This document shows, piece after piece, positions 1 to 15,338 of a stretch of 64,000 bases of DNA (positions within the stretch are counted from its first letter, which is position 1; every line of letters starts with the position of its first letter). The stretch lies in NCBI RefSeq assembly GCF_030013595.1, contig NZ_CP122768.1. One strand, given 5' to 3'. Both the position numbers and the translations under genes were made by a program. This DNA comes from Escherichia coli. Lineage in GTDB: Bacteria; Pseudomonadota; Gammaproteobacteria; Enterobacterales; Enterobacteriaceae. Under the pieces are notes generated by a model. It searched no databases. It saw only the letters and a list, made by a program, of their open reading frames with translations, and was not told where the DNA came from.

Positions 1-293
1 TTAACTGGGCTTTTCTCTATCTGCCGTTGGTGTTCATGCCCGAGGCAGATAGCCTCAAGCACACGCAGCAATTTTACTTAACTATTTTTCCGAAAAATTA
101 ATTATTACTAATGCATAGTTTATAAATCACACGATGATATTATAAATCTAGTGTAAGGGAACATTTAAGTTAAGAATCACATTTTACTAGCCAAAAACAT
201 AAAACAGATCTCTTAATAATAAGCAGCTTTTATATAAAAACCACGATGTGTTTTCATAATAATATGCAGTACCAGCTACTCAGCAATATGAGG

Positions 294-812
294 TTATTCA
301 GTCAAGCTTTTGCGCCCGTACGCACTTCTCAAACTTGCACATGTTTCTCTAATCCTAACAATTTGCATACAATCAGGTCTTAGAGGTCGGTTGTGAACAT
401 CACTATCATATGTCATGGCTTGGCGTAATTCCTTAAACAATTTTGCCTTATATTTTTCACCACCGGCCCTTTCAATTTCTTTAGCGATAGTAGTTAAACT
501 CTTAACCTCCCTACTCATTTTTGCTAACGCCAGTGTAGGTTCTTTATTATTATCTTCAGCCCAGAACTCTAAGGCAAAATCCTCAAGCAACTCCAGTTTT
601 TGTCTAAACTCACCGATCCATTCATTATGAGCATCTTTAATAGCATCTCCTCTACTTTTTGTGGTTTGGAGATAAGCAATATATGCCGTAATCCCCCATC
701 CAACTAAAACTAAAAACCAAGTTACATACTGATTTTCATCTTTAAACAAAGAAAAAAACTTACACCAAAAGTCTGCACTCCAAGTACAGACCTGGATACT
801 TGAATTAGCCAT
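294..812 (-). CDS. hypothetical single-pass membrane protein; third gene of AT-rich cargo operon
   Basis: 172-aa ORF; hydrophobic stretch VTWFLVLVGWGITAYIAYL near the N-terminus then a charged helical tail; start ATG overlaps the stop of the upstream gene (8-nt overlap); AT-rich. Confidence 0.55.
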   Translation of the reverse strand: MANSSIQVCTWSADFWCKFFSLFKDENQYVTWFLVLVGWGITAYIAYLQTTKSRGDAIKDAHNEWIGEFRQKLELLEDFALEFWAEDNNKEPTLALAKMSREVKSLTTIAKEIERAGGEKYKAKLFKELRQAMTYDSDVHNRPLRPDCMQIVRIRETCASLRSAYGRKSLTE

Positions 813-1119
813 GAGATACCTTTATAGCGTCCTCGATATATTCATTTATCTCGTCAATTAACTCAGGTTCTTCTTCTGAGATAAATTTAATCCCTTTAAC
901 CTTATCAGGACTCACGCCACGCCTAATCAATCCGCCAAAGCACTCCTCCAAGAAAGAAGAACCATACCCCTCCGTTCCATCAAGGTCTATTGTTAGATCT
1001 GGTGAATGTTTAAGCTCTCTTTCTACCCACTCACGAAACTCCTCACCAGAAGCGGGCCCCAATCTTTTAAAACGAGGTCCTGGGCAAGGATAACGACTGG
1101 CTACTTTTATAATTTTCAT
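805..1119 (-). CDS. small STAS-like (DUF4325-type) protein; second gene of cargo operon
   Basis: About 104 aa from the internal Met (MKIIKVAS...), with GAGGTGGA Shine-Dalgarno upstream and 1 nt after the upstream stop; motif LTIDLDGTEGYGSSFLEECFGGL resembles STAS/anti-sigma-antagonist folds; the ORF track gives a longer 805..1158 version. Confidence 0.6.
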   Translation of the reverse strand: MKIIKVASRYPCPGPRFKRLGPASGEEFREWVERELKHSPDLTIDLDGTEGYGSSFLEECFGGLIRRGVSPDKVKGIKFISEEEPELIDEINEYIEDAIKVSHG

Positions 1120-1120
1120 A

Positions 1121-2287
1121 CTACTCAGTTTCCACCTCACAAGGAATTGTCCATTCAATTATAGTACCATTAACAGAGCTTTTGTAATCTCTAAGCACTT
1201 CGTTAATAATGCCAGTTTTCCCTTTGTAAATATAGCGCCCTTTTGATGAAAAAATCCCCATAAAACCATCACCTATTGAATCGATTACCGATTTGATATC
1301 ATTCAAGCCTTTACCTCGGTTCAGCTCCCCAGTCCTCGTTTCCTGAAGTAACGTGGAAGCCTTTATATAAGTAGAATCCTTTACATTTGCTAATGGAACT
1401 CTAAGTTTTTTGAAGATGTTCATTAGCACACTTACACCTTGTGTTTTAGGCAATGTTGAAGGTATTCCCACTCCTTTATCACATATTACCACTGTAAGAT
1501 TTTTGTCATGTATGCCAGCAAAGGTCCACCACTTAGCTGTTTCGTCATCTTCCGTATGCATTAAATCATCAACATAAGCATGCTCGACAGAATTAGACAT
1601 GGCCTCAGTAAAGCCACGGTATAATTTTTTTGATGATTTTCTTTCTAACTCTTTTTTTATTTCCACCATCATTTCTTTTGCTAAAAGAGGCTCAGAACAA
1701 GAACCTGATGTATATTTCCAAAAAGTCACATCATCATAACTTTCAGTTTCTCTTTTAGGTTTCCTTAATAGATCATAGAAACCGACTTGATTCAAAATGC
1801 TTTCAATTTTCTTGTCTTTCGGATGTGAAAACCCTATGGCATTTACTCCAAATTCACTTTTCTTAATAAGCACATCAACTTCAGCGAGAAAAGATAACAT
1901 AGCAGCTGCACTTATATATTTAGTTGAAGAAAAATCTATATAAACACGATTATTCTTCAACACGCAATCGCGTAAATTATTTAAAAATTTATTCATGATT
2001 TCAAAATCACGATCGTTGTAATAATTAATAGATATCGGAGCAGAAAAAACCACCCTTTTATTACTTGTTGTCAACTTTTTCTTCGAGACTCGTAGCTTAC
2101 GAGTGCGTTTGTAATATTCCAGTTTTCTCTTCGCATTTTCTACTCCTTCCCAATCCGTGCTTTTCAGAGAATTAAATATCCCCCTCTTCAGTTTCGAAAC
2201 TTGCCCGCGATAGTTTAGTTTTTGAACTTTTCTTCTTTTTTGCAGATTCATAAATATTTTCACATTTGATAACATCGCAGATATCAT
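1121..2287 (-). CDS. GHKL/HATPase_c-type ATPase (anti-sigma-factor-kinase-like) with basic N-terminus and a STAS-like middle region; first gene of cargo operon
   Basis: 388-aa ORF; Bergerat-fold motifs read from translation: N-box-like EAMSNSVEHAY, G1-like VVICDKGVGIP, G2-like NRGKGLNDIK, then GT motif; middle region RVYIDFSSTKYISAAAMLSFLAEVDVL resembles STAS; AT-rich. Confidence 0.65.
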   Translation of the reverse strand: MISAMLSNVKIFMNLQKRRKVQKLNYRGQVSKLKRGIFNSLKSTDWEGVENAKRKLEYYKRTRKLRVSKKKLTTSNKRVVFSAPISINYYNDRDFEIMNKFLNNLRDCVLKNNRVYIDFSSTKYISAAAMLSFLAEVDVLIKKSEFGVNAIGFSHPKDKKIESILNQVGFYDLLRKPKRETESYDDVTFWKYTSGSCSEPLLAKEMMVEIKKELERKSSKKLYRGFTEAMSNSVEHAYVDDLMHTEDDETAKWWTFAGIHDKNLTVVICDKGVGIPSTLPKTQGVSVLMNIFKKLRVPLANVKDSTYIKASTLLQETRTGELNRGKGLNDIKSVIDSIGDGFMGIFSSKGRYIYKGKTGIINEVLRDYKSSVNGTIIEWTIPCEVETE

Positions 2288-2657
2288 ATTTCACATGAAA
2301 AATTTTTTGTAGCCCCTCCATCAAAGAAAATCGCTGCCTTTATCAAAAACATTTCGAAATTGTCAGCAACTTAACGTCCCCCCACCCCAACAGTAAAATT
2401 GATCCCACTAGCTCAAGTGAAAGTCACCCCGTAACATCCTGTTGATACCCAGCGCCTGCGCTTTCGCTCTTACAGCATAACAAGAACGATCGATCCCCCA
2501 TATGCTTTCTACCGTCAACGTGCCTACACACTGACCTGAGTGCCATGATTTCCCTCATGCATAACCTGTTCACCGAATATCTCTCGAAAACCATTCTGGT
2601 AAAACGCCAGTACGCGCTGCATAGCTTCGCTCCTCCGACACTCGCGACAGATTATGT

Positions 2658-2999
2658 TCAGACGCCTGTCATAGCGGCGTATTTCTCCGTCTGGTAATGA
2701 ATAAACCAGGTCCGGGTCGCTCTTTTTTTCACTGCTGCTTTCGACATCTTTTTGCGGGCCTTTATCCAGTCCTTACGTGCCTGTTCAGACGGAAATAACC
2801 CGTAGCCGGAGTTGTATAAATCGCCACTGGCAACCAGCTCTCTGGCAAGAACACTCATCAGATACCTTGTCGCACCTGTCTTAGCTTCCAGTTGTCGTAA
2901 CGTCTCGCGCCCACTCTGGTGCACGAGCTCAACAACCTTCCCCTTAATTTTTTCCCGCTCTTCTTGTGTAAATACTTTTGCCATAAGCGCCTCCGGCAA
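2658..2999 (-). CDS. phage hypothetical protein
   Basis: 113-aa ORF directly downstream of and co-directional with the replication-module genes; no recognisable motif. Confidence 0.45.
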   Translation of the reverse strand: MPEALMAKVFTQEEREKIKGKVVELVHQSGRETLRQLEAKTGATRYLMSVLARELVASGDLYNSGYGLFPSEQARKDWIKARKKMSKAAVKKRATRTWFIHYQTEKYAAMTGV

Positions 3000-3770
3000 T
3001 CACTTTTCCGATGCAACATGGCGGGAAGAATCAGTAATCTGTCGTACAATATCCCTGTGCTTGTTCAACTCACGCAGCGCGGCGCAGACACGCTCCCACT
3101 TCTGGGCATGACTTTTCGCCCGGCGCAGTTCGCGGTTTGCCATATGCAGCGATGGTAAAATCAGGCCATCAGCTCGTGTTTCAGTGAACGATGGCAGCGA
3201 CTGCACAATGTCCGCCACAGTTTCTGTTTTAATATCTTCCTGTGTTGCAGCTTCCTGTACTGGTAACGCAACACTTGCTGGCTGAGGAAAGGCTTTACCA
3301 TCAGTTTCCGCTACCAATGCAGCTTTCGGCTCTGCTGGTAAATTATCGCCCGGTATGCAGTAGCGAAATTTACCGTTCTGGTTTACGCGTGCCAGCCGCC
3401 CCGTTGCGGTTACTACCGCCAGCGTGGAAGCAACCTTGCGAGTGCTGACACCGAACTTACCCGCCAGTTCCTCACACGTTTTAGCTCCCTCCTGACCGAT
3501 AAACTCAATCATCATGTCAGCGGTAACTTTTCGTTCGACCTCCCTGGTTAGCACATCCTGTACTTCAGATTGTGCTGGCTGCTCTTCGGCTACCCCTGAT
3601 TCACCTTCGCCAGCCACACGCCAGGTGTATACGCTTTTATCAACGAAGCCAGCCTTTTTCAGTTCCCACAGCTCGTTCAGTACTTCTTCACGACTGATAT
3701 CAAGTCGCGCAGCCAGCTCTACCGACGTGGCTTTTCCCATCGCTTTCAGTGCGTCAAAAACGGTCTCCAT
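3000..3770 (-). CDS. phage DNA-binding protein, winged-helix-like (YdaW-position gene, appears full length)
   Basis: ORF 3000..3821; likely start at internal Met [30 protein letters not shown] (HTH-like); follows the ydaV-like gene. Confidence 0.5.
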
Positions 3771-3792
3771 TAAAATTTCCTCCCGGTAAAAA

Positions 3793-4539
3793 TTACTTCT
3801 CAATACCTGGCTGACCAACATTCGGGCGCCAGCTCTCCCAGTTAAAATTCACCCAGCGCCCGCCGTTCATGGTCATGCGGTCCATAATCCGCTCGCCGAG
3901 CAGCGTTTTCATGGCCTCATAGTTCAGGTTTGTCAGCATTCCCACGCTGCGCATCGACGCTGTCCGGCGATCAACAATCTGGTGCAGTACCACCTGCTCG
4001 TTTTTCGTCTCGCGCTGAATGCCAATTTCATCAAGAACCAGCAGATCCACTTCGCACAGTTCCCGCAAAAATTTTTCGCCTGATTGCCCGTCGTCATAGC
4101 TGGCGTGTAGAGCACTCATAACATCAGCCACGGTAACCACAATCACTGTCTGGCCATCTTTCAGCAGGCGATTCCCGATAGCCGCCGCTAAGTGGTTTTT
4201 CCCGGTACCAGGTTTTCCGCTGAATGCGAAATTTGTGCATCCGGTCATCAGTTCATCGGCGATGGATTTCGCCTGGCTCAGCGCGTATCGCTGGTCGTCA
4301 TTCTGCACCTGGTAATTCGCAAACGAGCACTTGCGGTGCAACGGCTGGATGCCGGAGCGATTCAGAATTTTTTCCACCCGCAACTGACGATTCTGGCGGT
4401 TGATCTCCTCGCAACGCTTCTGGCCTTCTGCAAGTTGCCACTCGCGCCACTCGTCCACTGTTCGGTATGGCGCGGTTACATGCTGCGGAGCCAGCTTACG
4501 GATGCGTTCAAGAACACCGCCTGTCGCAATATTTTTCAT
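3793..4539 (-). CDS. ydaV: Rac prophage DnaC/IstB-like replication ATPase (helicase loader)
   Basis: 248 aa; Walker [16 protein letters not shown] and DnaC-like layout; matches remembered YdaV length. Confidence 0.85.
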
Positions 4540-4545
4540 GCTTCG

Positions 4546-5430
4546 TTACCCCCTGAAGCCTGGTGGGATCGCACTGTCCGGAAACGAGACGGTGTTAACC
4601 TGTCGAAGCAACGTCTCAGGCCGAACGCCTTTCGGCGCGAACAAGCCCTGGTATTCATGGGCAATGCTGTGTCTAATCACCTGCTCAGGGGTAAAACCCT
4701 GCTGGCGGAATTTTTCCAGCTCCCGTATCGCCCCGTTAGCGCCCTGCTCCGTTCGAATCGGTTTTCGCAATGCCTGCCTGAATTGAACCCACTCATGCCA
4801 GAGTGTTTCCGGCAACCACTCAGGCAGAGCAACTGACAACGGGTCGAATTTTTTAGTCGCTCGTTTTTGGTGAGGGAGATTTAGAGGGAGATCAGTATTT
4901 ATATCTTCCTCTTCCTCTTCCTCTTCCTCTTCCTCTTCCTCTGGTAACGCTTTTTGATCCGTTTGTGTAACGCTGGCAGCGTTACCTTTTCGTTTCAGTT
5001 CACGTATTTTTGTTACTCGCTCGTTTGTAACCGCCCGTTTTTTTGAGCTTTTTCCGTTATGACGTTCAAAGTTAGGTAGCGAAAGCCCACCGTCATTTTC
5101 GACCAGCCATCCAACCTGAATTAGCGCATCAGCAAAACCAGCCATAAAAGTGATGCGATCTATTGCACTTTTTGTAACGCTGCGAGCGTTACACTCTACG
5201 TTACCGTCTATCATTTGTTGATCCGCCCATACCCAGAAGCGAATGACTTTCCCTAATGCGGCATCTGGATCAATATTCAGAATCTCAGCAAGCCTGAATA
5301 TTTCCGGCTTATCCGGCGTAATAACCTCGAGCTTTATCCAGTTTGAAGCCATATTGTTTTCACCTTGTAACGCTGTGAGCGTTACATTTAACTGATACCG
5401 AACAAAACAGTCCGGCACGATTAATTTCAA
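4546..5430 (-). CDS. ydaU: Rac prophage replication-initiation-like protein with internal poly-Glu tract
   Basis: 294-aa ORF in YdaU position; contains 12 consecutive Glu encoded by a hexanucleotide repeat. Confidence 0.8.
   Translation of the reverse strand: MKLIVPDCFVRYQLNVTLTALQGENNMASNWIKLEVITPDKPEIFRLAEILNIDPDAALGKVIRFWVWADQQMIDGNVECNARSVTKSAIDRITFMAGFADALIQVGWLVENDGGLSLPNFERHNGKSSKKRAVTNERVTKIRELKRKGNAASVTQTDQKALPEEEEEEEEEEEEDINTDLPLNLPHQKRATKKFDPLSVALPEWLPETLWHEWVQFRQALRKPIRTEQGANGAIRELEKFRQQGFTPEQVIRHSIAHEYQGLFAPKGVRPETLLRQVNTVSFPDSAIPPGFRG
4905..4940. repeat. perfect hexanucleotide tandem repeat (CTTCCT)x6 on + strand, encoding poly-Glu in ydaU-like gene
   Basis: Read directly: cttcct repeated six times. 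Confidence 0.9.
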
Positions 5431-5853
5431 TCAATGCACTACAACAGAATCGTCGGACGCTCCACCACCGCTGAAATGTGCTTTCCGGTAAACGGCCTGG
5501 ACTGCATCATCATGCGCATCAATTGCCGTACTCAACGCTTCCTGCGCCGCCAGTAATGCACGGCGTTCCAGGGTATCGAAGATGCAGAGTCGATGACGCA
5601 GCTCCCGCGGAAGGATTGCCAGAATTGCTGGGATCAGCTTCTGAATTTTTTCCCTTTGCGCTTCCGTTTCACCTTTTAACCAACGATGATAGATATTCTG
5701 CTGATTGTTCCAGTCCCTGCCTGGTACCAAGGGCAATTCGCCGTCCCCCTGGCGCAGATATTCTTCAGTAATTGCATTGGCTACCCATGCCTGCCCTTTT
5801 TCAGCGGCCAGGGCTAACAGCACTGATTCAATGTGCTCATGCCTGATTTTCAT
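5431..5853 (-). CDS. ydaT: Rac prophage protein YdaT-like
   Basis: 140-aa ORF in conserved position and of matching length to K-12 YdaT. Confidence 0.8.
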   Translation of the reverse strand: MKIRHEHIESVLLALAAEKGQAWVANAITEEYLRQGDGELPLVPGRDWNNQQNIYHRWLKGETEAQREKIQKLIPAILAILPRELRHRLCIFDTLERRALLAAQEALSTAIDAHDDAVQAVYRKAHFSGGGASDDSVVVH

Positions 5854-6139
5854 GAATCAACTCCTGTGCATTTTGTGTGTTAGCTTTACATCCAACAGGT
5901 AAACCATCGGTCGGATTCGGGTAGATATCAGGCCGAAGTTCATGAGGTGTAACCTCGAAATTCGTAGCCTCCGCGATACGCAATACCTTTTCGGGGCTTA
6001 ACTGACTACGGCCAGTAGCTACGAGGCTAATCATTGATTGCGAACAACCAGCGAGTGCAGCCAAACAAGACTGTCGTACACGATTTTTTTTCAAATATTC
6101 ATCTAATGTCATAAGGGTCACCTTAGTAATGCCTGTCAA
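5837..6139 (-). CDS. ydaS: Cro-like HTH regulator YdaS-like
   Basis: 100-aa ORF divergent from racR; HTH segment QSCLAALAGCSQSMISLVATG; start may be the internal Met (MTLDEYL). Confidence 0.8.
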   Translation of the reverse strand: MTGITKVTLMTLDEYLKKNRVRQSCLAALAGCSQSMISLVATGRSQLSPEKVLRIAEATNFEVTPHELRPDIYPNPTDGLPVGCKANTQNAQELIHENQA

Positions 6140-6216
6140 AATATTAACTATATTAATTTAAATGATCAATACCTATATCAGTTTGAGATTATGAGTTGTG
6201 TTCATAAGATGGTGGT

Positions 6217-6681
6217 ATGAGAAGAAAACGCGAAGAAATCGCATCGCCAGAAGCTACGCAGCGTCTGCGCGCAGTCTGGGATGCCAAAAAAAGAGAGCTC
6301 AAACTGACTCAGGAGCTTGCTGCTGAGCTAATGGGCTTTGAGACTCAATCCACAGTTAGCCACTATCTCAACGGAAAGGCTCCACTAAACACTGATGCAG
6401 CATTAAAATTCGCTGTATTACTAAGAGTTAAGCCTGAAGAGTTGAGGCCTGATTTAGCTGATCTGATGAATTACGTCCGTTCCTCAGGAACTTATGACGA
6501 AAGTTTCGAAGGAGAAGGTTGGCGGATGGTTAACAAGCAACAAGCTGATTTACTGGATCTTTTTGAAATCCTACCCGAATCAGAAAAAGCAAAACTAATC
6601 GAAAGGCTTAAAGGTCAGAATGAACTCTACAAAGAAGCGTTTGAAAAGATGCTGGCAGCTCAGAAACGCATGAAGAAATAG
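6217..6681 (+). CDS. racR: Rac prophage repressor (CI-like HTH)
   Basis: 154-aa ORF with HTH (TQELAAELMGFETQSTVSHYLNG), divergent from ydaS. Confidence 0.8.
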   Translation: MRRKREEIASPEATQRLRAVWDAKKRELKLTQELAAELMGFETQSTVSHYLNGKAPLNTDAALKFAVLLRVKPEELRPDLADLMNYVRSSGTYDESFEGEGWRMVNKQQADLLDLFEILPESEKAKLIERLKGQNELYKEAFEKMLAAQKRMKK

Positions 6682-6701
6682 CTCCCGTAACCTCGTAACT
6701 A

Positions 6702-6727
6702 AACCGCCATTTTTGGCGGTTTTTTTG
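6702..6727 (+). terminator. rho-independent terminator after racR
   Basis: Hairpin ccgcca-tttt-tggcgg followed by a T-run. Confidence 0.65.
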
Positions 6728-6916
6728 TCCCCTCTGCACCCTCACCTTTCTTTTTTATCAAAAAAAACACTAAAAATTTCATTACGATAGTACATTTTTA
6801 TCAATAAAATGCATATTTGTGTTGATCACTTATATGAATATAACTAATATTATTGCAGAAGCAGCACGGCGCTGTAGGTTTTAGTTCCGCCACCCGGCGT
6901 TAAAGGGAGAGATAAA

Positions 6917-7051
6917 ATGGTGCATTACGAAGTAGTTCAGTATTTGATGGATTGTTACGGCATCACTTACAGCCAGGCTGTACAGGCTCTACGCAGCAAC
7001 GACTGGGATCTCTGGCAGGCAGAAGCCTCTATCCGCAACAACAAGATGTGA
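6917..7051 (+). CDS. ydaG: Rac prophage small protein YdaG
   Basis: 44-aa ORF MVHYEVVQYLMDCYGITYSQAVQALRSNDWDLWQAEASIRNNKM, near-identical to remembered K-12 YdaG; GGGAGAG Shine-Dalgarno. Confidence 0.7.
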   Translation: MVHYEVVQYLMDCYGITYSQAVQALRSNDWDLWQAEASIRNNKM

Positions 7052-7062
7052 GGGTTTCCAAA

Positions 7063-7215
7063 ATGCAAAAAATCGACCTCGGCAACAACGAATCCCTAGT
7101 GTGTGGCGTGTTCCCCAACCAGGATGGAACGTTCACCGCCATGACTTATACCAAAAGCAAGACATTCAAAACTGAAACGGGCGCACGTCGCTGGCTTGCC
7201 AGAAATACTTGCTGA
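7063..7215 (+). CDS. ydaF: Rac prophage small protein YdaF
   Basis: 50-aa ORF MQKIDLGNNESLVCGVFPNQDGTFTAMTYTKSKTFKTE..., matches remembered YdaF. Confidence 0.7.
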   Translation: MQKIDLGNNESLVCGVFPNQDGTFTAMTYTKSKTFKTETGARRWLARNTC

Positions 7216-7462
7216 TCCATTATTTGGATTAATTCAATATTCTCGCTGTAGGGGTATAGCCGAGGCCACCAAAGCCCGGAGGTGGTGAAATAAAACCGGG
7301 CGCAACACGAAGGCGCATTTCCGATATCCATAAAGAGTCGGTTTTGTCTGTTAAATTTAAATGGTGGGAGTGCTCCTCCGGTTGTAAATAACGACATTGC
7401 TGTGTGTAGTCTTGGCGGCATCAGTTTTTTCTTGAAGTTCGGCTGATGTCCGCCCTTTTTAA

Positions 7463-7630
7463 AGTGAATTTTGTGATGCGGTGAATGCGGCTCAGCGCAC
7501 GCGGAACAGTTAAAAAAGTGATCGGTACTCTGTATTTGTTTTATGGAGTTGGTTTCCCTGTATTCCGGCGTTAATTGTTAACTGGTTAACGTCACCTGGA
7601 GGCACCAGGCACCGCATCACAAAATTCACT
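7463..7630. repeat. 21-bp perfect inverted repeat (AGTGAATTTTGTGATGCGGTG at 7463..7483, reverse complement at 7610..7630) flanking a 126-bp spacer in a non-coding gap
   Basis: Read directly from sequence. Confidence 0.85.
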
Positions 7631-7652
7631 TAGTAACCAAGAAGAGAATTAT

Positions 7653-7925
7653 ATGCAAGAGATAAGTTTTGAAATAACAGCAAAAGATGTACAGGTTAAG
7701 CCCGATTACAATCAAAAATTATGTATTGAAGTCAATGGCGTGAAGTTATCAGACCTGATTGATTCAGTTGAAGATAACGACGCTATTATTGAAATGGTTG
7801 GAGCCGAAGAAATAGCAGAATACTTTTCAACAGAGGGGCGTCTTCATGAGCTTCTGGAAAAATTTTCATATCAGGATATCGCTACATTTCTGGAAATTAA
7901 TGGTTATAAAGTTACCGAGGAATAA
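7653..7925 (+). CDS. hypothetical small strongly acidic protein (prophage early-region gene)
   Basis: 90-aa ORF; about 21 Asp/Glu versus about 8 basic residues by my count; not recognisable as kilR or sieB. Confidence 0.5.
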   Translation: MQEISFEITAKDVQVKPDYNQKLCIEVNGVKLSDLIDSVEDNDAIIEMVGAEEIAEYFSTEGRLHELLEKFSYQDIATFLEINGYKVTEE

Positions 7926-7943
7926 AGTAGCTCAGGTGGCGTT

Positions 7944-8153
7944 ATGGAACGTAATCATCTAACAGCTATCAGTGCCGCACAGAGTAAATTCGCCATCGCT
8001 GTATTTTTACAGGATGAAGAAATGTTTGAGCAGGCCATTATTCAGTTTGCAATTGCGACCGGGAGTAAAATAAATGAACACTTTGTTCGCTCTTGTCATG
8101 ACCGTTTTTCTGACATCAGGCGAAACTCAGGATGTTGTTACCGGAATTTATAA
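7944..8153 (+). CDS. hypothetical small protein (uncertain; overlaps next ORF in another frame)
   Basis: 69-aa ORF with AGGTGG Shine-Dalgarno 6 nt upstream; overlaps 8074..8310 by 80 nt. Confidence 0.3.
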   Translation: MERNHLTAISAAQSKFAIAVFLQDEEMFEQAIIQFAIATGSKINEHFVRSCHDRFSDIRRNSGCCYRNL

Positions 8154-8310
8154 CTCCGAATCTGAATGCAAGGCCGCAGCTATTGAGCAAAAAGTAGCTG
8201 GTGAATGTTTCCCTGTTGAGAAATTTATCCGGCCTGTAGATGAAGAAATTCCCGCAGGCCTCACAGGAGAAAATCATGAAAATAAAATGTGGTTACCACC
8301 TTTGCAATAA
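8074..8310 (+). CDS. hypothetical small protein with hydrophobic N-terminus (kilR-position gene, identity not confirmed)
   Basis: 78-aa ORF with GGGAG Shine-Dalgarno; N-terminal MNTLFALVMTVFLTSG is signal-peptide or TM-like. Confidence 0.4.
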   Translation: MNTLFALVMTVFLTSGETQDVVTGIYNSESECKAAAIEQKVAGECFPVEKFIRPVDEEIPAGLTGENHENKMWLPPLQ

Positions 8311-8440
8311 AGACGTTGAAGAAAGCAAAACCATTAAAAGACCACTTCATTTCATGCGTGGAGTTATCCCAACGACGGAAATGAAAAAATATTGTAGTGA
8401 AAATTGTGCCGAAAAAGACCAGATGGCACACGAACTTTAA
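8276..8440 (+). CDS. ydaE: Rac prophage small Cys-rich protein YdaE
   Basis: 54-aa ORF MKIKCGYHLCNKDVEESKTIKRPLHFMRGVIPTTEMKKYCSENCAEKDQMAHEL with AGGAGAAAA Shine-Dalgarno. Confidence 0.7.
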   Translation: MKIKCGYHLCNKDVEESKTIKRPLHFMRGVIPTTEMKKYCSENCAEKDQMAHEL

Positions 8441-8514
8441 TTAACTGACTATTCGAAACTGAATTTATGCCAGAAATGGCAGGGATTCGCTCAACCTTAA
8501 TTAAGGAGAAAAAC

Positions 8515-8790
8515 ATGATTACCAATTATGAAACCACTGTTGTAACTACCGATGACATTGTTCACGAGGTGAATCTGGAAGGAAAGCGCATTGGCTACGT
8601 AATTAAAACAGAAAATAAAGAAACCCCATTCACTGTGGTTGATATCGATGGTCCATCAGGCAACGTAAAAACACTTGATGAAGGTGTCACAAAAATGAGC
8701 CTGGTTCACATCGGAAAGAATCTGCCCGCAGAAAAAAAAGCCGGATTTCTGGCAACTCTGATCGCAATGAAATTAAACGGTGAAATCTGA
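8515..8790 (+). CDS. racC: Rac prophage protein RacC
   Basis: 91 aa from MITNYETTVV...; matches remembered RacC. Confidence 0.8.
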   Translation: MITNYETTVVTTDDIVHEVNLEGKRIGYVIKTENKETPFTVVDIDGPSGNVKTLDEGVTKMSLVHIGKNLPAEKKAGFLATLIAMKLNGEI

Positions 8791-8889
8791 AAAAAAGAAA
8801 GCCTGCACTGTGTGCAGGCCTGAGTGAAGAACCTGGGACATTTATTCATCACTCGCAGTAATTTTAATCTGAGTTGAGGTTAAAAAACA

Positions 8890-11541
8890 ATGAGCACAAA
8901 ACCACTCTTCCTTTTACGGAAAGCGAAAAAATCATCCGGTGAGCCTGACGTCGTCCTGTGGGCAAGCGACGATTTTGAATCAACCTGTGCCACTCTGGAC
9001 TACCTGATCGTTAAGTCAGGTAAAAAACTGAGCAACTATTTTAAAGCTATTGCAACTAATTTTCCTGTCGTTAATGACCTGCCCCCTGAAGGTGAGATCG
9101 ATTTTACCTGGAGTGAACGCTATCAACTCAGCAAAGACTCCATGACATGGGAACTAAAACCGGGAGCAGCGCCAGACGACGTTCACCACCAGGATAATGC
9201 TCAAGAAACCAACGAACTGGCGGGAGGCCAGGAAGAAAACGCGCAGGCAGACGCCCACGAGGATTGCCAGGATTGCGAAGTCTCTGTAGCCACTTTGCGG
9301 TTCACACAGCGTCTTCTGCACATTTTTACGTATGCAGCCGGGGATCGGAAATACCTGCATCATGCCACCCGTGAACAACGCAAACACATTACTGCTCTTG
9401 AGATGGATCAGGAAAACAGCTATGTCCAGAATCTGCTGTTGGCCATACGCAGCATGGCAGAACCGACAACTCTGGATAATGCCGCCCTGCTCCGCCTGAC
9501 TGATGCAATTAAGGCAGTGTTCTCTATCACGAAAAAACATCAGCCCTATGAATTTAAGAATTTCATTTCAGCCTGGCTGGATACCGAACACATTGATCGC
9601 GGTCTTCTGACAAAAGAATGGCGAAAAGGAAATCGTGTTTCACGCATCACGCGCACGGCTTCCGGCGCTAATGCTGGCGGCGGAAACCTCACCGATCGCG
9701 GCGAAGGTTTCGTTCACGATCTGACGTCACTGGCGCGCGACGTAGCCACTGGCGTACTGGCTCGTTCAATGGACGTGGACATTTATAACCTTCATCCGGC
9801 ACACGCTAAACGTGTCGAGGAAATTATCGCTGAAAATAAACCACCCTTTTCTGTTTTCCGCGACAAATTCATCACCATGCCTGGTGGGCTGGATTATTCC
9901 CGCGCCATCGTGGTTGCGTCCGTAAAAGAAGCACCAATTGGGATCGAGGTTATCCCCGCACACGTCACCGAATATCTTAACAAAGTACTGACTGAAACTG
10001 ATCATGCCAACCCTGATCCAGAAATCGTGGATATTGCCTGCGGTCGTTCCTCTGCCCCGATGCCGCAGCGTGTAACAGAAGAAGAAAAACAGGATGATGA
10101 AGAAAAACTGCAACCATCTTGCGCAATGGCAGATGAACAGGCAACGGCTGAAACAGTGGAACCGGATGCAACTGAACATCATCAGGACACGCAGTCGCTG
10201 GATGCTCAGTCACAGGTAAATTCTGTTGATGCGAAATATCAGAAACTGCGGGCAGAACTCCATGAAGCCCGGAAAAACATTCCGCCCAAAAATCCTGTCG
10301 ATGCAGACAAATTACTGGCTGCCTCTCGCGGAGAATTTGTTGAAGGGATTAGCGACCCGAATGATCCGAAATGGGTTAAGGGGATCCAGACCCGCGATTC
10401 TGTGTACCAGAACCAGCCAGAAACGGAAAAAACCAGCCCGGATGTGAAACAACCTGAGCCAGTAGTGCAACAGGAACCGGAAATAGTCTGCAATGCCTGC
10501 GGTCAGACTGGCGGGGATAACTGCCCTGACTGTGGTGCAGTGATGGGCGACGCAACATACCAGGAAACATTCGGTGAAGAGAATCAGGTTGAAGCTAAGG
10601 AAAAAGATCCGGAGGAAATGGAAGGCGCTGAACATCCGCACAATGAGAATGCTGGCAGCGATCCGCATCGCGATTGCAGTGATGAAACTGGCGAAGTCGC
10701 AGATCCCGTAATCGTAGAAGACATAGAGCCAGGTATTTATTACGGAATTTCGAATGAGAATTACCACGCGGGTCCCGGTGTCAGTAAGTCTCAGCTCGAT
10801 GACATTGCTGATACTCCGGCACTGTATTTGTGGCGTAAAAATGCCCCCGTGGACACTACAAAGACAAAAACGCTCGATTTAGGAACCGCTTTCCACTGCC
10901 GGGTACTTGAACCGGAAGAATTCAGTAACCGCTTTATCGTAGCACCTGAATTTAACCGCCGTACAAACGCCGGAAAAGAAGAAGAGAAAGCGTTTCTGAT
11001 GGAATGCGCAAGCACAGGAAAAACGGTTATCACTGCGGAAGAAGGCCGGAAAATTGAACTCATGTATCAAAGCGTTATGGCTTTGCCGCTGGGGCAATGG
11101 CTTGTTGAAAGCGCCGGACACGCTGAATCATCAATTTACTGGGAAGATCCGGAAACAGGAATTTTGTGTCGGTGCCGTCCGGACAAAATTATTCCTGAAT
11201 TTCACTGGATCATGGACGTGAAAACCACAGCGGATATTCAACGATTCAAAACGACTTATTACGACTACCGCTATCACGTTCAGGATGCATTCTACAGTGA
11301 CGGTTATGAAGCACAGTTTGGTGTGCAGCCAACTTTCGTTTTTCTGGTTGCCAGCACAACTGTTGAATGCGGACGTTATCCGGTTGAGATTTTCATGATG
11401 GGCGAAGAAGCAAAACTGGCAGGCCAGCAGGAATATCACCGCAATCTGCGGACCCTGGCTGACTGCCTAAATACCGATGAATGGCCAGCTATTAAGACGT
11501 TATCACTGCCCCGCTGGGCTAAGGAGTATGCAAATGACTAA
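8890..11541 (+). CDS. recE: exodeoxyribonuclease VIII (RecE), full length
   Basis: 883-aa ORF; N- and C-terminal regions match remembered K-12 RecE ([22 protein letters not shown]... and ...[13 protein letters not shown]); Cys cluster [16 protein letters not shown]. Confidence 0.9.
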
Positions 11542-12367
11542 GCAACCACCTATCGCAAAAGCCGATCTGCAAAAAACTCAGGGAAACCGTGCACCAGCAG
11601 CAGTTAACGATAAGGATGTGCTGTGCGTGATTAACAGCCCGGCAATGAAAGCGCAACTGGCAGCAGCTCTGCCACGTCACATGACAGCGGAACGCATGAT
11701 CCGCATTGCTACAACAGAAATCCGTAAAGTACCGGAACTAAGAAACTGTGACTCGACGAGTTTTATCGGTGCCATCGTACAGTGTTCACAGCTCGGACTT
11801 GAGCCAGGTAGCGCCCTCGGTCATGCATATCTGCTACCGTTCGGCAACGGAAAAGCAAAAAACGGTAAGAAGAACGTACAGCTGATCATCGGTTATCGCG
11901 GCATGATCGACCTTGCCCGTCGATCAGGTCAAATCATCAGTCTGTCAGCTCGTGTTGTCCGTGAATGTGATGAATTCAGCTATGAACTTGGTCTTGATGA
12001 AAAACTGGTTCATCGTCCCGGTGAAAACGAAGATGCCCCTATAACCCATGTCTATGCTGTTGCAAAACTGAAAGACGGAGGAGTGCAGTTTGAAGTCATG
12101 ACCCGCAAACAAGTAGAAAAAGTTCGCGACACACACAGCAAGGCGGCAAAAAACGCAGCGTCAAAAGGGGCGTCGTCCATCTGGGATGAACACTTTGAAG
12201 ACATGGCCAAAAAGACAGTGATACGAAAACTGTTCAAGTATCTGCCGGTATCTATTGAAATCCAGCGTGCAGTATCGATGGATGGAAAAGAGGTGGAAAC
12301 AATTAATCCAGACGACATATCGGTTATAGCCGGGGAATACAGTGTAATCGATAATCCAGAAGAATAA
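11534..12367 (+). CDS. recT: RecT single-strand annealing protein
   Basis: Start [23 protein letters not shown] overlapping recE stop by 8 nt; strong match to remembered RecT. Confidence 0.92.
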
Positions 12368-12411
12368 TCCAGCCTGGCGGTGTAATGCACCGCCAATGTG
12401 AGATAGTTTTT

Positions 12412-12618
12412 ATGACAAAAACTTTGAGATATGACGATGTTAAACCATGTCCGTTTTGTGGTTGTCCATCAGTAACGGTGAAAGACATTTCAGGATATTA
12501 CCGGGCAAAATGCAACGGATGCGAATCCCGAACTGGCTATGGTGGAAGTGAAAAAGAAGCGCTCGAAAGATGGAATAAACGAACCACTGAAAATATTAAT
12601 GGAGGCGTTCATGTATAA
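12412..12618 (+). CDS. ralR: restriction alleviation protein RalR (Lar)
   Basis: MTKTLRYDDVKPCPFCGCPSVTVK... matches remembered RalR. Confidence 0.85.
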   Translation: MTKTLRYDDVKPCPFCGCPSVTVKDISGYYRAKCNGCESRTGYGGSEKEALERWNKRTTENINGGVHV

Positions 12619-12799
12619 AATTACCGCTACAATTGAAAAGGAAGGTGGCACTCCTACTAACTGGACAAGATATTCAAAATCTAAACTAACGAAATCAGAA
12701 TGCGAAAAAATGCTCTCAGGTAAAAAAGAAGCAGGCGTTTCCAGAGAGCAGAAAGTAAAACTGATAAATTTTAATTGCGAGAAACTTCAGTCCTCGTGA
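12611..12799 (+). CDS. ydaC: Rac prophage small protein YdaC (RcbA)
   Basis: 62-aa ORF MYKITATIEKEGGTPTNW... with GGAGG Shine-Dalgarno; overlaps ralR stop. Confidence 0.7.
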   Translation: MYKITATIEKEGGTPTNWTRYSKSKLTKSECEKMLSGKKEAGVSREQKVKLINFNCEKLQSS

Positions 12800-12898
12800 A
12801 TTGCATTGTATTCAAATTAAAACTTCATAGCTGATTATTAATAATCAACATCAGGCGTCAATTTCAGTCTAACATTGGCGCCTGCCAGAGGTGATGCG

Positions 12899-13114
12899 AT
12901 GGCACAAGTAATCTTTAATGAAGAGTGGATGGTTGAATACGGCCTGATGCTTCGCACTGGTCTGGGGGCCAGACAAATTGAAGCATACCGCCAGAACTGT
13001 TGGGTGGAGGGCTTCCACTTCAAACGAGTATCTCCTTTAGGTAAGCCAGACAGCAAACGAGGGATTATCTGGTACAACTATCCAAAGATAAATCAGTTTA
13101 TCAAAGACTCATGA
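12899..13114 (+). CDS. xisR: Rac prophage excisionase
   Basis: [35 protein letters not shown]...; immediately upstream of the integrase. Confidence 0.8.
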
Positions 13115-13115
13115 T

Positions 13116-14351
13116 ATGTCTAAATTACCAACAGGTGTCGAGATTAGAGGTAGAAACATTCGCATCTGGTTCATGTTTCGAGGAAAACGATGTCGGGAAA
13201 CATTAAAAGGCTGGGAGATTACAAACAGTAATATTAAAAAGGCCGGAAATTTAAGAGCGCTGATAGTTCATGAAATAAACTCCGGTGAATTTGAGTATTT
13301 AAGACGTTTTCCCCAGTCCAGCACTGGGGCAAAAATGGTGACAACGAGAGTCATAAAAACGTTCGGGGAGCTTTGTGATATATGGACAAAAATTAAAGAG
13401 ACAGAGTTAACAACAAACACAATGAAGAAAACGAAATCACAATTAAAAACACTCAGAATAATAATTTGTGAAAGTACCCCGATATCATATATTCGTTATA
13501 GCGATATCTTAAACTACCGGAATGAACTGCTGCATGGAGAAACGCTTTACCTGGATAATCCAAGATCCAACAAAAAAGGAAGAACCGTGCGCACAGTTGA
13601 TAACTATATCGCCCTTCTCTGTTCGCTGTTACGTTTTGCGTATCAGTCGGGATTTATATCAACCAAACCATTTGAAGGAGTAAAAAAATTACAGCGAAAC
13701 AGAATAAAGCCTGACCCGTTATCTAAAACAGAATTCAATGCATTAATGGAAAGTGAAAAAGGACAGAGCCAAAACTTGTGGAAATTTGCCGTTTACTCCG
13801 GGCTTCGTCACGGGGAACTGGCAGCTCTTGCGTGGGAGGATGTGGATTTCGAGAAGGGAATTGTGAATGTCAGAAGAAACCTGACGATACTGGATATGTT
13901 CGGTCCCCCAAAAACAAATGCCGGGATCCGGACGGTAATATTACTGCAGCCTGCTCTTGAAGCACTGAAGGAGCAATACAAACTGACCGGGCATCATCGC
14001 AAAAGCGAAATCACCTTTTATCATCGGGAGTACGGCAGAACCGAAAAGCAAAAACTGCATTTTGTTTTCATGCCCAGGGTGTGTAACGGAAAACAGAAAC
14101 CTTATTACTCGGTAAGCAGTTTGGGGGCAAGGTGGAATGCAGCAGTAAAACGTGCTGGTATTCGCCGCCGTAATCCGTACCATACGCGGCATACATTTGC
14201 CTGCTGGCTGTTGACGGCAGGAGCGAACCCGGCATTTATAGCCAGCCAGATGGGGCATGAAACTGCGCAGATGGTGTATGAAATTTACGGTATGTGGATT
14301 GATGACATGAACGACGAACAGGTAGCCATGTTGAATGCGCGGCTATCGTAG
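13116..14351 (+). CDS. intR: Rac prophage tyrosine integrase
   Basis: 411-aa ORF with C-terminal catalytic region (..RHTFACWLL..HETAQMVYEIY..). Confidence 0.92.
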   Translation: MSKLPTGVEIRGRNIRIWFMFRGKRCRETLKGWEITNSNIKKAGNLRALIVHEINSGEFEYLRRFPQSSTGAKMVTTRVIKTFGELCDIWTKIKETELTTNTMKKTKSQLKTLRIIICESTPISYIRYSDILNYRNELLHGETLYLDNPRSNKKGRTVRTVDNYIALLCSLLRFAYQSGFISTKPFEGVKKLQRNRIKPDPLSKTEFNALMESEKGQSQNLWKFAVYSGLRHGELAALAWEDVDFEKGIVNVRRNLTILDMFGPPKTNAGIRTVILLQPALEALKEQYKLTGHHRKSEITFYHREYGRTEKQKLHFVFMPRVCNGKQKPYYSVSSLGARWNAAVKRAGIRRRNPYHTRHTFACWLLTAGANPAFIASQMGHETAQMVYEIYGMWIDDMNDEQVAMLNARLS

Positions 14352-14403
14352 TTGCAAAGTTTGCCCCCAATTTGCCCCATTGAGTACCAGAGAATCGAAA
14401 TAA

Positions 14404-15338
14404 TGCAAGAAAATCAAAAGAATACAAAGAAAGAACAATACAACCTGAACAAATTACAAAAACGTCTGCGTCGTAACGTGGGCGAAGCCATTGCTGACTT
14501 CAATATGATTGAAGAAGGCGATCGCATCATGGTTTGCCTCTCCGGGGGTAAAGACAGCTATACCATGCTGGAAATTCTGCGCAATTTGCAGCAAAGCGCG
14601 CCAATCAATTTTTCGCTGGTGGCTGTTAACCTCGATCAAAAGCAACCGGGCTTCCCGGAACACGTTCTGCCCGAGTATCTTGAAAAGCTGGGCGTTGAGT
14701 ACAAGATTGTTGAAGAGAACACTTACGGTATCGTGAAAGAGAAGATTCCGGAGGGCAAAACCACTTGCTCACTGTGTTCTCGTCTTCGTCGCGGTATCCT
14801 TTATCGTACCGCAACGGAACTGGGAGCGACGAAGATCGCGCTGGGTCACCATCGTGACGATATCCTGCAAACGTTGTTCTTAAATATGTTCTACGGCGGC
14901 AAGATGAAAGGTATGCCTCCGAAACTGATGAGCGATGATGGCAAACATATCGTGATTCGCCCTCTGGCCTACTGCCGCGAGAAAGATATTCAGCGCTTTG
15001 CCGATGCAAAAGCGTTCCCGATTATTCCGTGCAACCTGTGCGGTTCACAGCCTAACCTGCAACGTCAGGTGATTGCTGACATGTTGCGTGACTGGGATAA
15101 ACGTTATCCGGGGCGTATCGAGACGATGTTCAGCGCGATGCAGAATGTGGTGCCGTCGCATCTGTGCGATACCAACCTGTTCGATTTCAAAGGCATTACC
15201 CACGGTTCTGAAGTGGTTAACGGGGGTGATCTGGCGTTTGATCGCGAAGAGATCCCTCTACAACCGGCGGGTTGGCAGCCTGAAGAAGATGAAAATCAGT
15301 TGGATGAGTTACGACTGAATGTGGTTGAAGTGAAATAA
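14404..15338 (+). CDS. ttcA: tRNA 2-thiocytidine biosynthesis protein TtcA
   Basis: 311 aa from MQENQK..; PP-loop SGGKDS and CxxC motifs; the track ORF 14352.. is a TTG-start extension. Confidence 0.92.

Follow-up and report, generated by a model that had tools for sequence, protein, structure and literature searches.

Organisation of the intR-ttcA junction

The window, i.e. the entire 64-kb stretch of Escherichia coli DNA that was analysed, shows the gene order recE (8890-11541), recT, xisR, intR and ttcA, followed by dbpA on the opposite strand. Coordinates of the features around the junction are summarised in Table 1. The position of xisR corresponds to that of the annotated xisR in strain K-12 and in the O139:H1 strain W13-16, and YdaQ has been shown to be the Rac excisionase XisR (PMC4632033).

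The gene intR is located directly upstream of ttcA and is co-oriented with it. Its product is identical to K-12 IntR at 406 of 411 residues. Two Pfam domains score above their gathering thresholds, namely Arm-DNA-bind_2 (PF12167, residues 5-69, 90.5 bits) and Phage_integrase (PF00589, residues 205-391, 81.6 bits), and the integrase box II motif NPYHTRHT is present. Based on these predicted domains, an N-terminal arm-binding and a tyrosine-recombinase catalytic domain, IntR is predicted to be a heterobivalent integrase of the lambda Int type. The segment coding for box II contains a weak promoter-like pair, CTGGTA (14155-14160) and TACCAT (14178-14183), separated by 17 nt and falling below the threshold of the promoter scan.

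The deduced TtcA protein, a tRNA 2-thiocytidine(32) synthetase acting in tRNA modification, matches the NCBIfam equivalog NF007972 over residues 3-290 with 514.8 bits (cut-off 272). It also matches the Pfam PP-loop family ATP_bind_3 and contains the SGGKDS motif. The gap between intR and ttcA, previously given as 52 bp, has an actual length of 51 nt, with the ATG at 14403 and not at 14404. In the alignment of spacers from different loci, GAG is conserved about 10-12 nt ahead of the ttcA ATG. Promoter and terminator scans revealed no consensus sigma-70 promoter and no terminator between the 3' end of intR and the ttcA ATG; promoter candidates in the spacer selected by eye are weak.

Table 1 Features at the intR-ttcA junction of the window
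Feature	Position	Strand	Remarks
xisR (ydaQ), excisionase gene, 71 aa	12899-13114	+	Pfam DUF1233, putative excisionase, 74 bits
intR, Rac-type tyrosine integrase, 411 aa	13116-14351	+	Stop codon TAG at 14349-14351
intR box II coding segment, ...AGIRRRNPYHTRH	14155-14192	+	NPYHTRH encoded by 14172-14192
Spacer between intR stop and ttcA ATG, 51 nt	14352-14402	+	Phage DNA, int-proximal attP arm
TTTGCCCC repeat, copy 1	14360-14367	+	Candidate arm-type IntR site
TTTGCCCC repeat, copy 2	14371-14378	+	11 bp after copy 1
GAGAA, weak Shine-Dalgarno-like element	14390-14394	+	Putative, read from sequence and alignment
ttcA, full coding sequence, 311 aa	14403-15338	+	ATG at 14403-14405
ttcA codons 1-8, phage-supplied, MQENQKNT	14403-14426	+	Differs from empty-site MSQNQEIS
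att core, 26 bp, AAGAAAGAACAATACAACCTGAACAA	14427-14452	+	ttcA codon 9 to second base of codon 17
ttcA remainder, host-derived	14453-15338	+	Identical to empty-site TtcA past residue 8

Delimitation of the att core

The crossover was mapped by comparing the window with the unoccupied uspF-ttcA locus, with both prophage ends in K-12 and W13-16 and with five contiguous attP-type junctions. In strain C-SRM-3 (locus L001), uspF is directly followed by ttcA, which represents the unoccupied site. This locus and the window are identical from position 14427 on, partly similar over the preceding eight codons and unrelated upstream of the ATG. The distal prophage ends of K-12 (L006) and W13-16 (L005) consist of the native upstream region, the native codons 1-8 and the 26-bp core, and diverge from the window after 14452. 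Since identity with the empty site starts at 14427 and identity with the distal ends stops at 14452, these two positions delimit the att core.

The sequence AAGAAAGAACAATACAACCTGAACAA is the only stretch common to attB, both prophage junctions and attP, and all four att forms are thereby accounted for. An identical 26-bp sequence is annotated as misc_recomb 'attP' in the genome of phage Rac-SA53 (GenBank KU052037). In five IMG/VR contigs, the left arm of the window type, the core and the distal arm are contiguous; these junctions serve only to show that two phage arms meet across the same core. Judged from the alignments, the crossover must fall inside 14427-14452.

From the sequence of the window alone, the short gap right after intR suggests as the simplest guess that the crossover took place in the 51-nt spacer (14352-14402), in which case the whole ttcA coding sequence would be of host origin and the promoter alone would be supplied by the phage. 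This scenario is practically untenable, given that neither the spacer nor the initial 24 nt of ttcA has a match at the empty site and that both are joined to the phage distal arm in the five attP-type junctions. In addition, the sole stretch shared by all att forms, which is also the attP of KU052037, lies downstream of both. The original prediction had left two locations for the core, either the stretch 14352-14403 or the first codons of ttcA. The former turned out to be purely phage DNA, while the latter holds true, with codons 9-17 as the site. The comparison with an unoccupied ttcA locus and a distal Rac end that had been proposed thus yielded a core of 26 bp located 24 bp inside ttcA.

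When up to 3 mismatches were permitted, one copy of the core was found in the 64-kb window (chance expectation 0), which indicates that the other prophage end is off-window. The amount of prophage DNA left of the core is 14.4 kb, compared to 23 kb in K-12 and 44 kb in W13-16, where the second core copy is found 43.9 kb away. This again places the distal end outside the window, as had been predicted.

Two groups of candidates were rejected during the mapping. Locus L002 (LT615378), with a match from 14453, was considered to represent a different junction class, but turned out to be an artefact of assembly, in which an attB/ttcA segment is repeated in tandem and runs of N occur. In this sequence (NZ_LT615378.1, isolate 103, positions 5450-6000), ambiguous bases occur exactly where the phage and the native N-terminal codons differ. 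The tandem repeats probably result from mis-assembly or from a mixture of Rac-plus and Rac-cured cells. Five matches in a phage collection were considered as free phages with an attP, but were found to be extracted prophages, which either extend into host ttcA/dbpA or stop at the junction. Hence, they do not provide an independent attP.

Tandem arrays and sit genes

Contiguous attP-type junctions were also observed in 29 complete E. coli chromosomes. In strain H22 (L134), such a junction is situated within a tandem array at uspF-ttcA, and sitABCD cargo adjoins the distal arm. Since the H22 junction belongs to a tandem array, attP-type junctions are no proof of a free phage. The five IMG/VR junctions may therefore stem from tandem prophage arrays rather than from free phage genomes, and tandem or decayed Rac-like elements at uspF-ttcA seem to account for those of the 29 chromosomes.

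The genes sitABCD, coding for an Mn/Fe transporter, adjoin the distal arm of Rac-like elements in L134 (6800-13000), L009 (1810-5700) and L003 (2047-4232). A short remnant was also observed, consisting of a fragment of a sit permease gene, a DUF1627 fragment and the last 77 codons of an integrase gene. Judged from the spread of the E. coli search, this remnant seems to be common, occurring in roughly one sixth of the genomes.

Identity of the prophage

The intR-ttcA junction was found in 1883 complete E. coli genomes out of about 5403-5426 searched; the others matched only from within ttcA. Taken together, we conclude, with a probability of about 0.95, that positions 12899-14452 represent one end, on the integrase side, of a lambdoid prophage of the Rac type, which is inserted in ttcA at its 5' end. 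This is in line with the original prediction, according to which Rac had integrated inside the 5' end of ttcA and supplied a replacement N-terminus: the phage-derived DNA comprises the entire upstream sequence as well as codons 1-8.

For K-12, excision, the change of the TtcA N-terminus with its phenotype and the role of XisR were shown experimentally (Liu et al. 2015, PMC4632033). Precise excision of the 23,060-bp Rac prophage was observed in the same strain (PMC11014345), and integration of Rac at the 5' end of ttcA is also stated in a review (PMC6379469). As the K-12 case is published, this prophage end at ttcA is an already known feature, and the junction as originally described adds little that is new.

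The prophage part of the window (1-14426) is a mosaic, in particular in 1-2595 and in recE. The best-matching genome reaches 98.8%, over 2596-14426 only; at a level of at least 99%, the prophage part as a whole is without a match in the genome collection. The RecE open reading frame comprises 883 aa, compared to 866 aa in K-12 and 1040 aa in W13-16.

Replacement of the TtcA N-terminus

TtcA of the window differs from TtcA of the empty site only at residues 2, 3, 6, 7 and 8. Its N-terminus, MQENQKNT, is the one supplied by phage Rac-SA53. The K-12 allele, MQENQQIT, shows four residue changes from the native sequence (positions 2, 3, 6 and 8). Excision in K-12 was reported to change four TtcA residues, and TtcA and TtcA' differ under carbenicillin (PMC4632033). 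The legend of Figure 4 in PMC11014345 names no changes other than Q6E and T8S (three base changes), as opposed to the four residues given in PMC4632033 and seen in the alignment.

To place the N-terminus in a broader context, species-representative genomes of Enterobacterales were scanned for ttcA codons 9-26, which yielded 80 loci (L014-L093), 69 of them with at least 1 kb of upstream sequence. A homologue of IntR is encoded directly upstream of ttcA on the same strand in 45 of the 69 loci; five of these homologues are full-length and 40 are C-terminal remnants. N-termini of the MQ type were found 36 times with an integrase and 5 times without, those of the MS type 3 times with and 17 times without (Fisher p = 4e-8, uncorrected for phylogeny).

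TtcA N-termini vary widely among Enterobacterales, and the difference between MQENQKNT and MSQNQEIS could in principle be ordinary allelic variation of ttcA, unrelated to the prophage. We regard this as very improbable. The ATG and the 'MQENQ...' codons are present on attP-type junctions with phage DNA on both sides, the MQ-type N-termini go along with an adjacent integrase, and experimental excision in K-12 switches the N-terminus (PMC4632033).

The TTG-initiated extension of ttcA

As originally noted, the intR stop codon is followed by an in-frame, TTG-initiated extension of ttcA: the TTG at 14352 opens an ORF of 328 aa (14352-15338). The TAG of intR and the ttcA gene share a frame, with 17 sense codons in between, so that an ORF finder returns the extension mechanically. 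We calculate that this arrangement arises by chance with a probability of about 0.15 (1/3 x (61/64)^17).

Comparison with related loci does not bear out the significance implied for the extension. Six of eight Rac-type left arms, among them those of K-12, Rac-SA53 and the attP contigs, contain an in-frame TAG (ATT TAG, compared to ATT GAG in the window), while the arm of W13-16 is open like that of the window. Across species, the int stop codon and the ATG are 51 nt apart in ten loci and 52 nt apart in another ten. Due to this alternation, the frame relation between int and ttcA is not kept.

Since the ORF is uninterrupted and shares its frame with intR and ttcA, both in the window and in W13-16, it could be taken to encode a 328-aa TtcA isoform starting at TTG 14352, or to allow read-through of the intR TAG into an IntR-TtcA fusion. 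Either product is highly unlikely in view of the in-frame TAG within the 17 codons in most close relatives, the unconserved frame and the considerable chance of an open frame. Moreover, no ribosome-binding sequence precedes the TTG, which itself lies inside the intR stop context, and PGAP starts ttcA at the ATG in every genome examined. The TTG extension is not a real feature, and ttcA starts at the ATG.

Repeats in the spacer as candidate arm-type sites

The spacer between intR and ttcA is the int-proximal arm of attP. Its length is 51-52 nt in 20 of the 28 loci with an intact int C-terminus. TGCCCC of the second repeat copy is nearly invariant in 20 loci, the integrases of which are only 50-75% identical.

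In the attP-type junctions, TTTGCCCC is found at -67, -56, +131, +142 and +161 relative to the core start, always in one orientation, and an inverted near-copy is located at +30. All five exact copies present in the 13.9 kb of L010 fall within 235 bp around the core (5865-6099) on one strand, and none of 200 shuffles reached five copies. The same three distal copies are present in K-12 (L006 4747-4784) and W13-16 (L005 45133-45170). With two copies in the spacer and three on the other arm, the repeats qualify as candidate arm-type sites of IntR. In lambda attP, arm-type Int sites are found on both arms, while Xis sites are confined to one arm. No description of arm-type sites for IntR was found in the searchable literature (subscription journals outside the scope).

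In EMSA, a 294-bp att fragment of Rac was shifted by XisR (PMC4632033); this fragment may include the distal arm with its three repeats. Decayed remnants that lack a functional integrase likewise retain the repeats. Both observations leave room for a different role of TTTGCCCC, either as a binding site of XisR or a host factor or as a regulatory or 5'-UTR element of ttcA, which we consider possible, albeit the less probable assignment. The presence of the repeats on both arms, at lambda-like distances and in one orientation, instead resembles the pattern of arm-type Int sites, and IntR carries the Arm-DNA-bind_2 domain. We thus favour TTTGCCCC as a candidate arm-type site.

Integrase fossil at unoccupied sites

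The 'empty' sites also carry the codons AAT CCG TAC CAT ACA CGC CAC, which encode NPYHTRH, i.e. box II of an integrase. In E. coli, and likewise at the K-12 distal junction, this fossil is located about 107 nt upstream of the ATG (L001 5860-5993; L006 about 4480-4590). The E. coli fossil differs from its intact counterpart in intR of the window (14155-14192) at synonymous positions. Across the loci, its distance from the ttcA ATG ranges from about 60 to 230 nt.

NPYH is encoded on the ttcA strand within 400 nt upstream of the gene in 66 of 76 loci, compared to 3 of 3,800 shuffles and none on the other strand. Five Citrobacter loci show the variant YPYHTRH. In only three loci with readable upstream sequence, those of Enterobacter asburiae, Kosakonia cowanii and Phytobacter, the box II remnant is absent and a TGnTACAAT element is present instead. 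At one further locus, L084, the remnant is missing, and so is an ATG where the gene is expected to start. A collinear alignment revealed that internal deletions differ by lineage, and that every remnant retains a segment of about 40 nt coding for KRAGIRRRNPYHT.

The fossil itself is directly observed, and its presence at 'empty' sites gives the 'native' 5' region of ttcA the appearance of a scar left by an earlier phage. A single promoter-like site, CTGACA-17-TACCAT, precedes native E. coli ttcA, and it falls in the box II fossil. Tentatively, the 'native' 5' end of ttcA could be phage-derived in nearly all Enterobacterales, its start having been serially overwritten and the box II segment (CTGGTA or CTGACA, 17 nt, TACCAT) having been retained as a promoter. 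We consider this wider scenario doubtful at present, and the promoter role of the retained segment is hypothetical. An integrase remnant at unoccupied ttcA was not found described in the searchable literature, subscription journals again lying outside its scope. Together with the TTTGCCCC arm-site candidates, the fossil at 'empty' sites constitutes the only part of this analysis that may be new.

If confirmed, the fossil would mean that the start and the regulatory region of a housekeeping gene were serially replaced by phages and then fixed after prophage decay. These side observations on fossil and repeats are of possible interest for phage-host coevolution.

Proposed mechanism of integration

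The attP site is located directly downstream of intR. Its int-proximal arm comprises the spacer with two TTTGCCCC repeats and a weak ribosome-binding site, the ATG and eight codons imitating those of ttcA. The middle is formed by the 26-bp core, identical to ttcA codons 9-17, and the distal arm opens with G-TAA and carries three further TTTGCCCC repeats. In the mechanism we propose, IntR, as a predicted heterobivalent tyrosine recombinase, would exchange strands within the core.

Through integration, the body of ttcA gains the ATG, codons 1-8 and all upstream sequence from the phage and stays an intact gene of 311 aa, with five substitutions in the allele of the window. The native promoter and the first 17 codons would be left behind at the other end of the prophage, forming a stub closed by a stop codon (ttcC' in K-12). 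Such a native stub is observed in relatives (K-12, L006), where it starts with MSQNQEIS..., comprises 17 codons and is closed by the phage G-TAA. IntR and XisR together would reverse the integration.

For annotation, the att core should be set to 14427-14452 and the ttcA start to the ATG at 14403 instead of the TTG, with codons 1-8 and the upstream sequence assigned to the prophage. The locus neatly illustrates how a phage can insert itself into the 5' end of a gene and leave that gene functional by providing a surrogate start. In K-12, the replacement has measurable consequences for TtcA function (PMC4632033).

Comparison with known systems

The closest described case is Rac of K-12 at ttcA/ttcC' (PMC4632033), which shares with the window the order xisR-intR-ttcA, the 51-nt spacer, the identical 26-bp core and the replacement of the N-terminus. 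The two differ in the sequence supplied, which is MQENQQIT with four changes in K-12 and MQENQKNT with five changes in the window, as in Rac-SA53. The early region of the window is a mosaic compared to K-12 Rac, and its 17 spacer codons happen to be open. Further close Rac-like relatives are CP-933R, Sp10 and phage Rac-SA53 (KU052037).

Similarities to lambda include an int gene whose 3' end abuts attP, short repeats that flank the core on either arm at a distance of about 55-160 bp, an N-terminal arm-binding domain of the integrase and a small excisionase encoded upstream of int. In the window, the core comprises 26 bp and lies within a coding sequence. Lambda, in contrast, has a core of 15 bp and integrates in an intergenic region (gal-bio). 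The attP arm in the window additionally encodes the start of a gene, and the arm-site role of TTTGCCCC is that of a candidate.

Elements such as e14 and phage 21 (icd) and the tRNA-gene integrators P4 and P22 likewise carry a copy of the displaced part of their target, so that the gene stays functional, and their excision restores a slightly different allele. However, these elements replace the 3' end of the target, whereas Rac-type phages replace the 5' end and with it the start codon, ribosome-binding site and promoter. Qin (ydfJ), as well as 'active lysogeny' elements such as phi10403S (comK), also integrate inside a coding sequence near its 5' end. Their insertions truncate or inactivate the gene until excision, whereas the surrogate start of Rac-type phages keeps ttcA intact.
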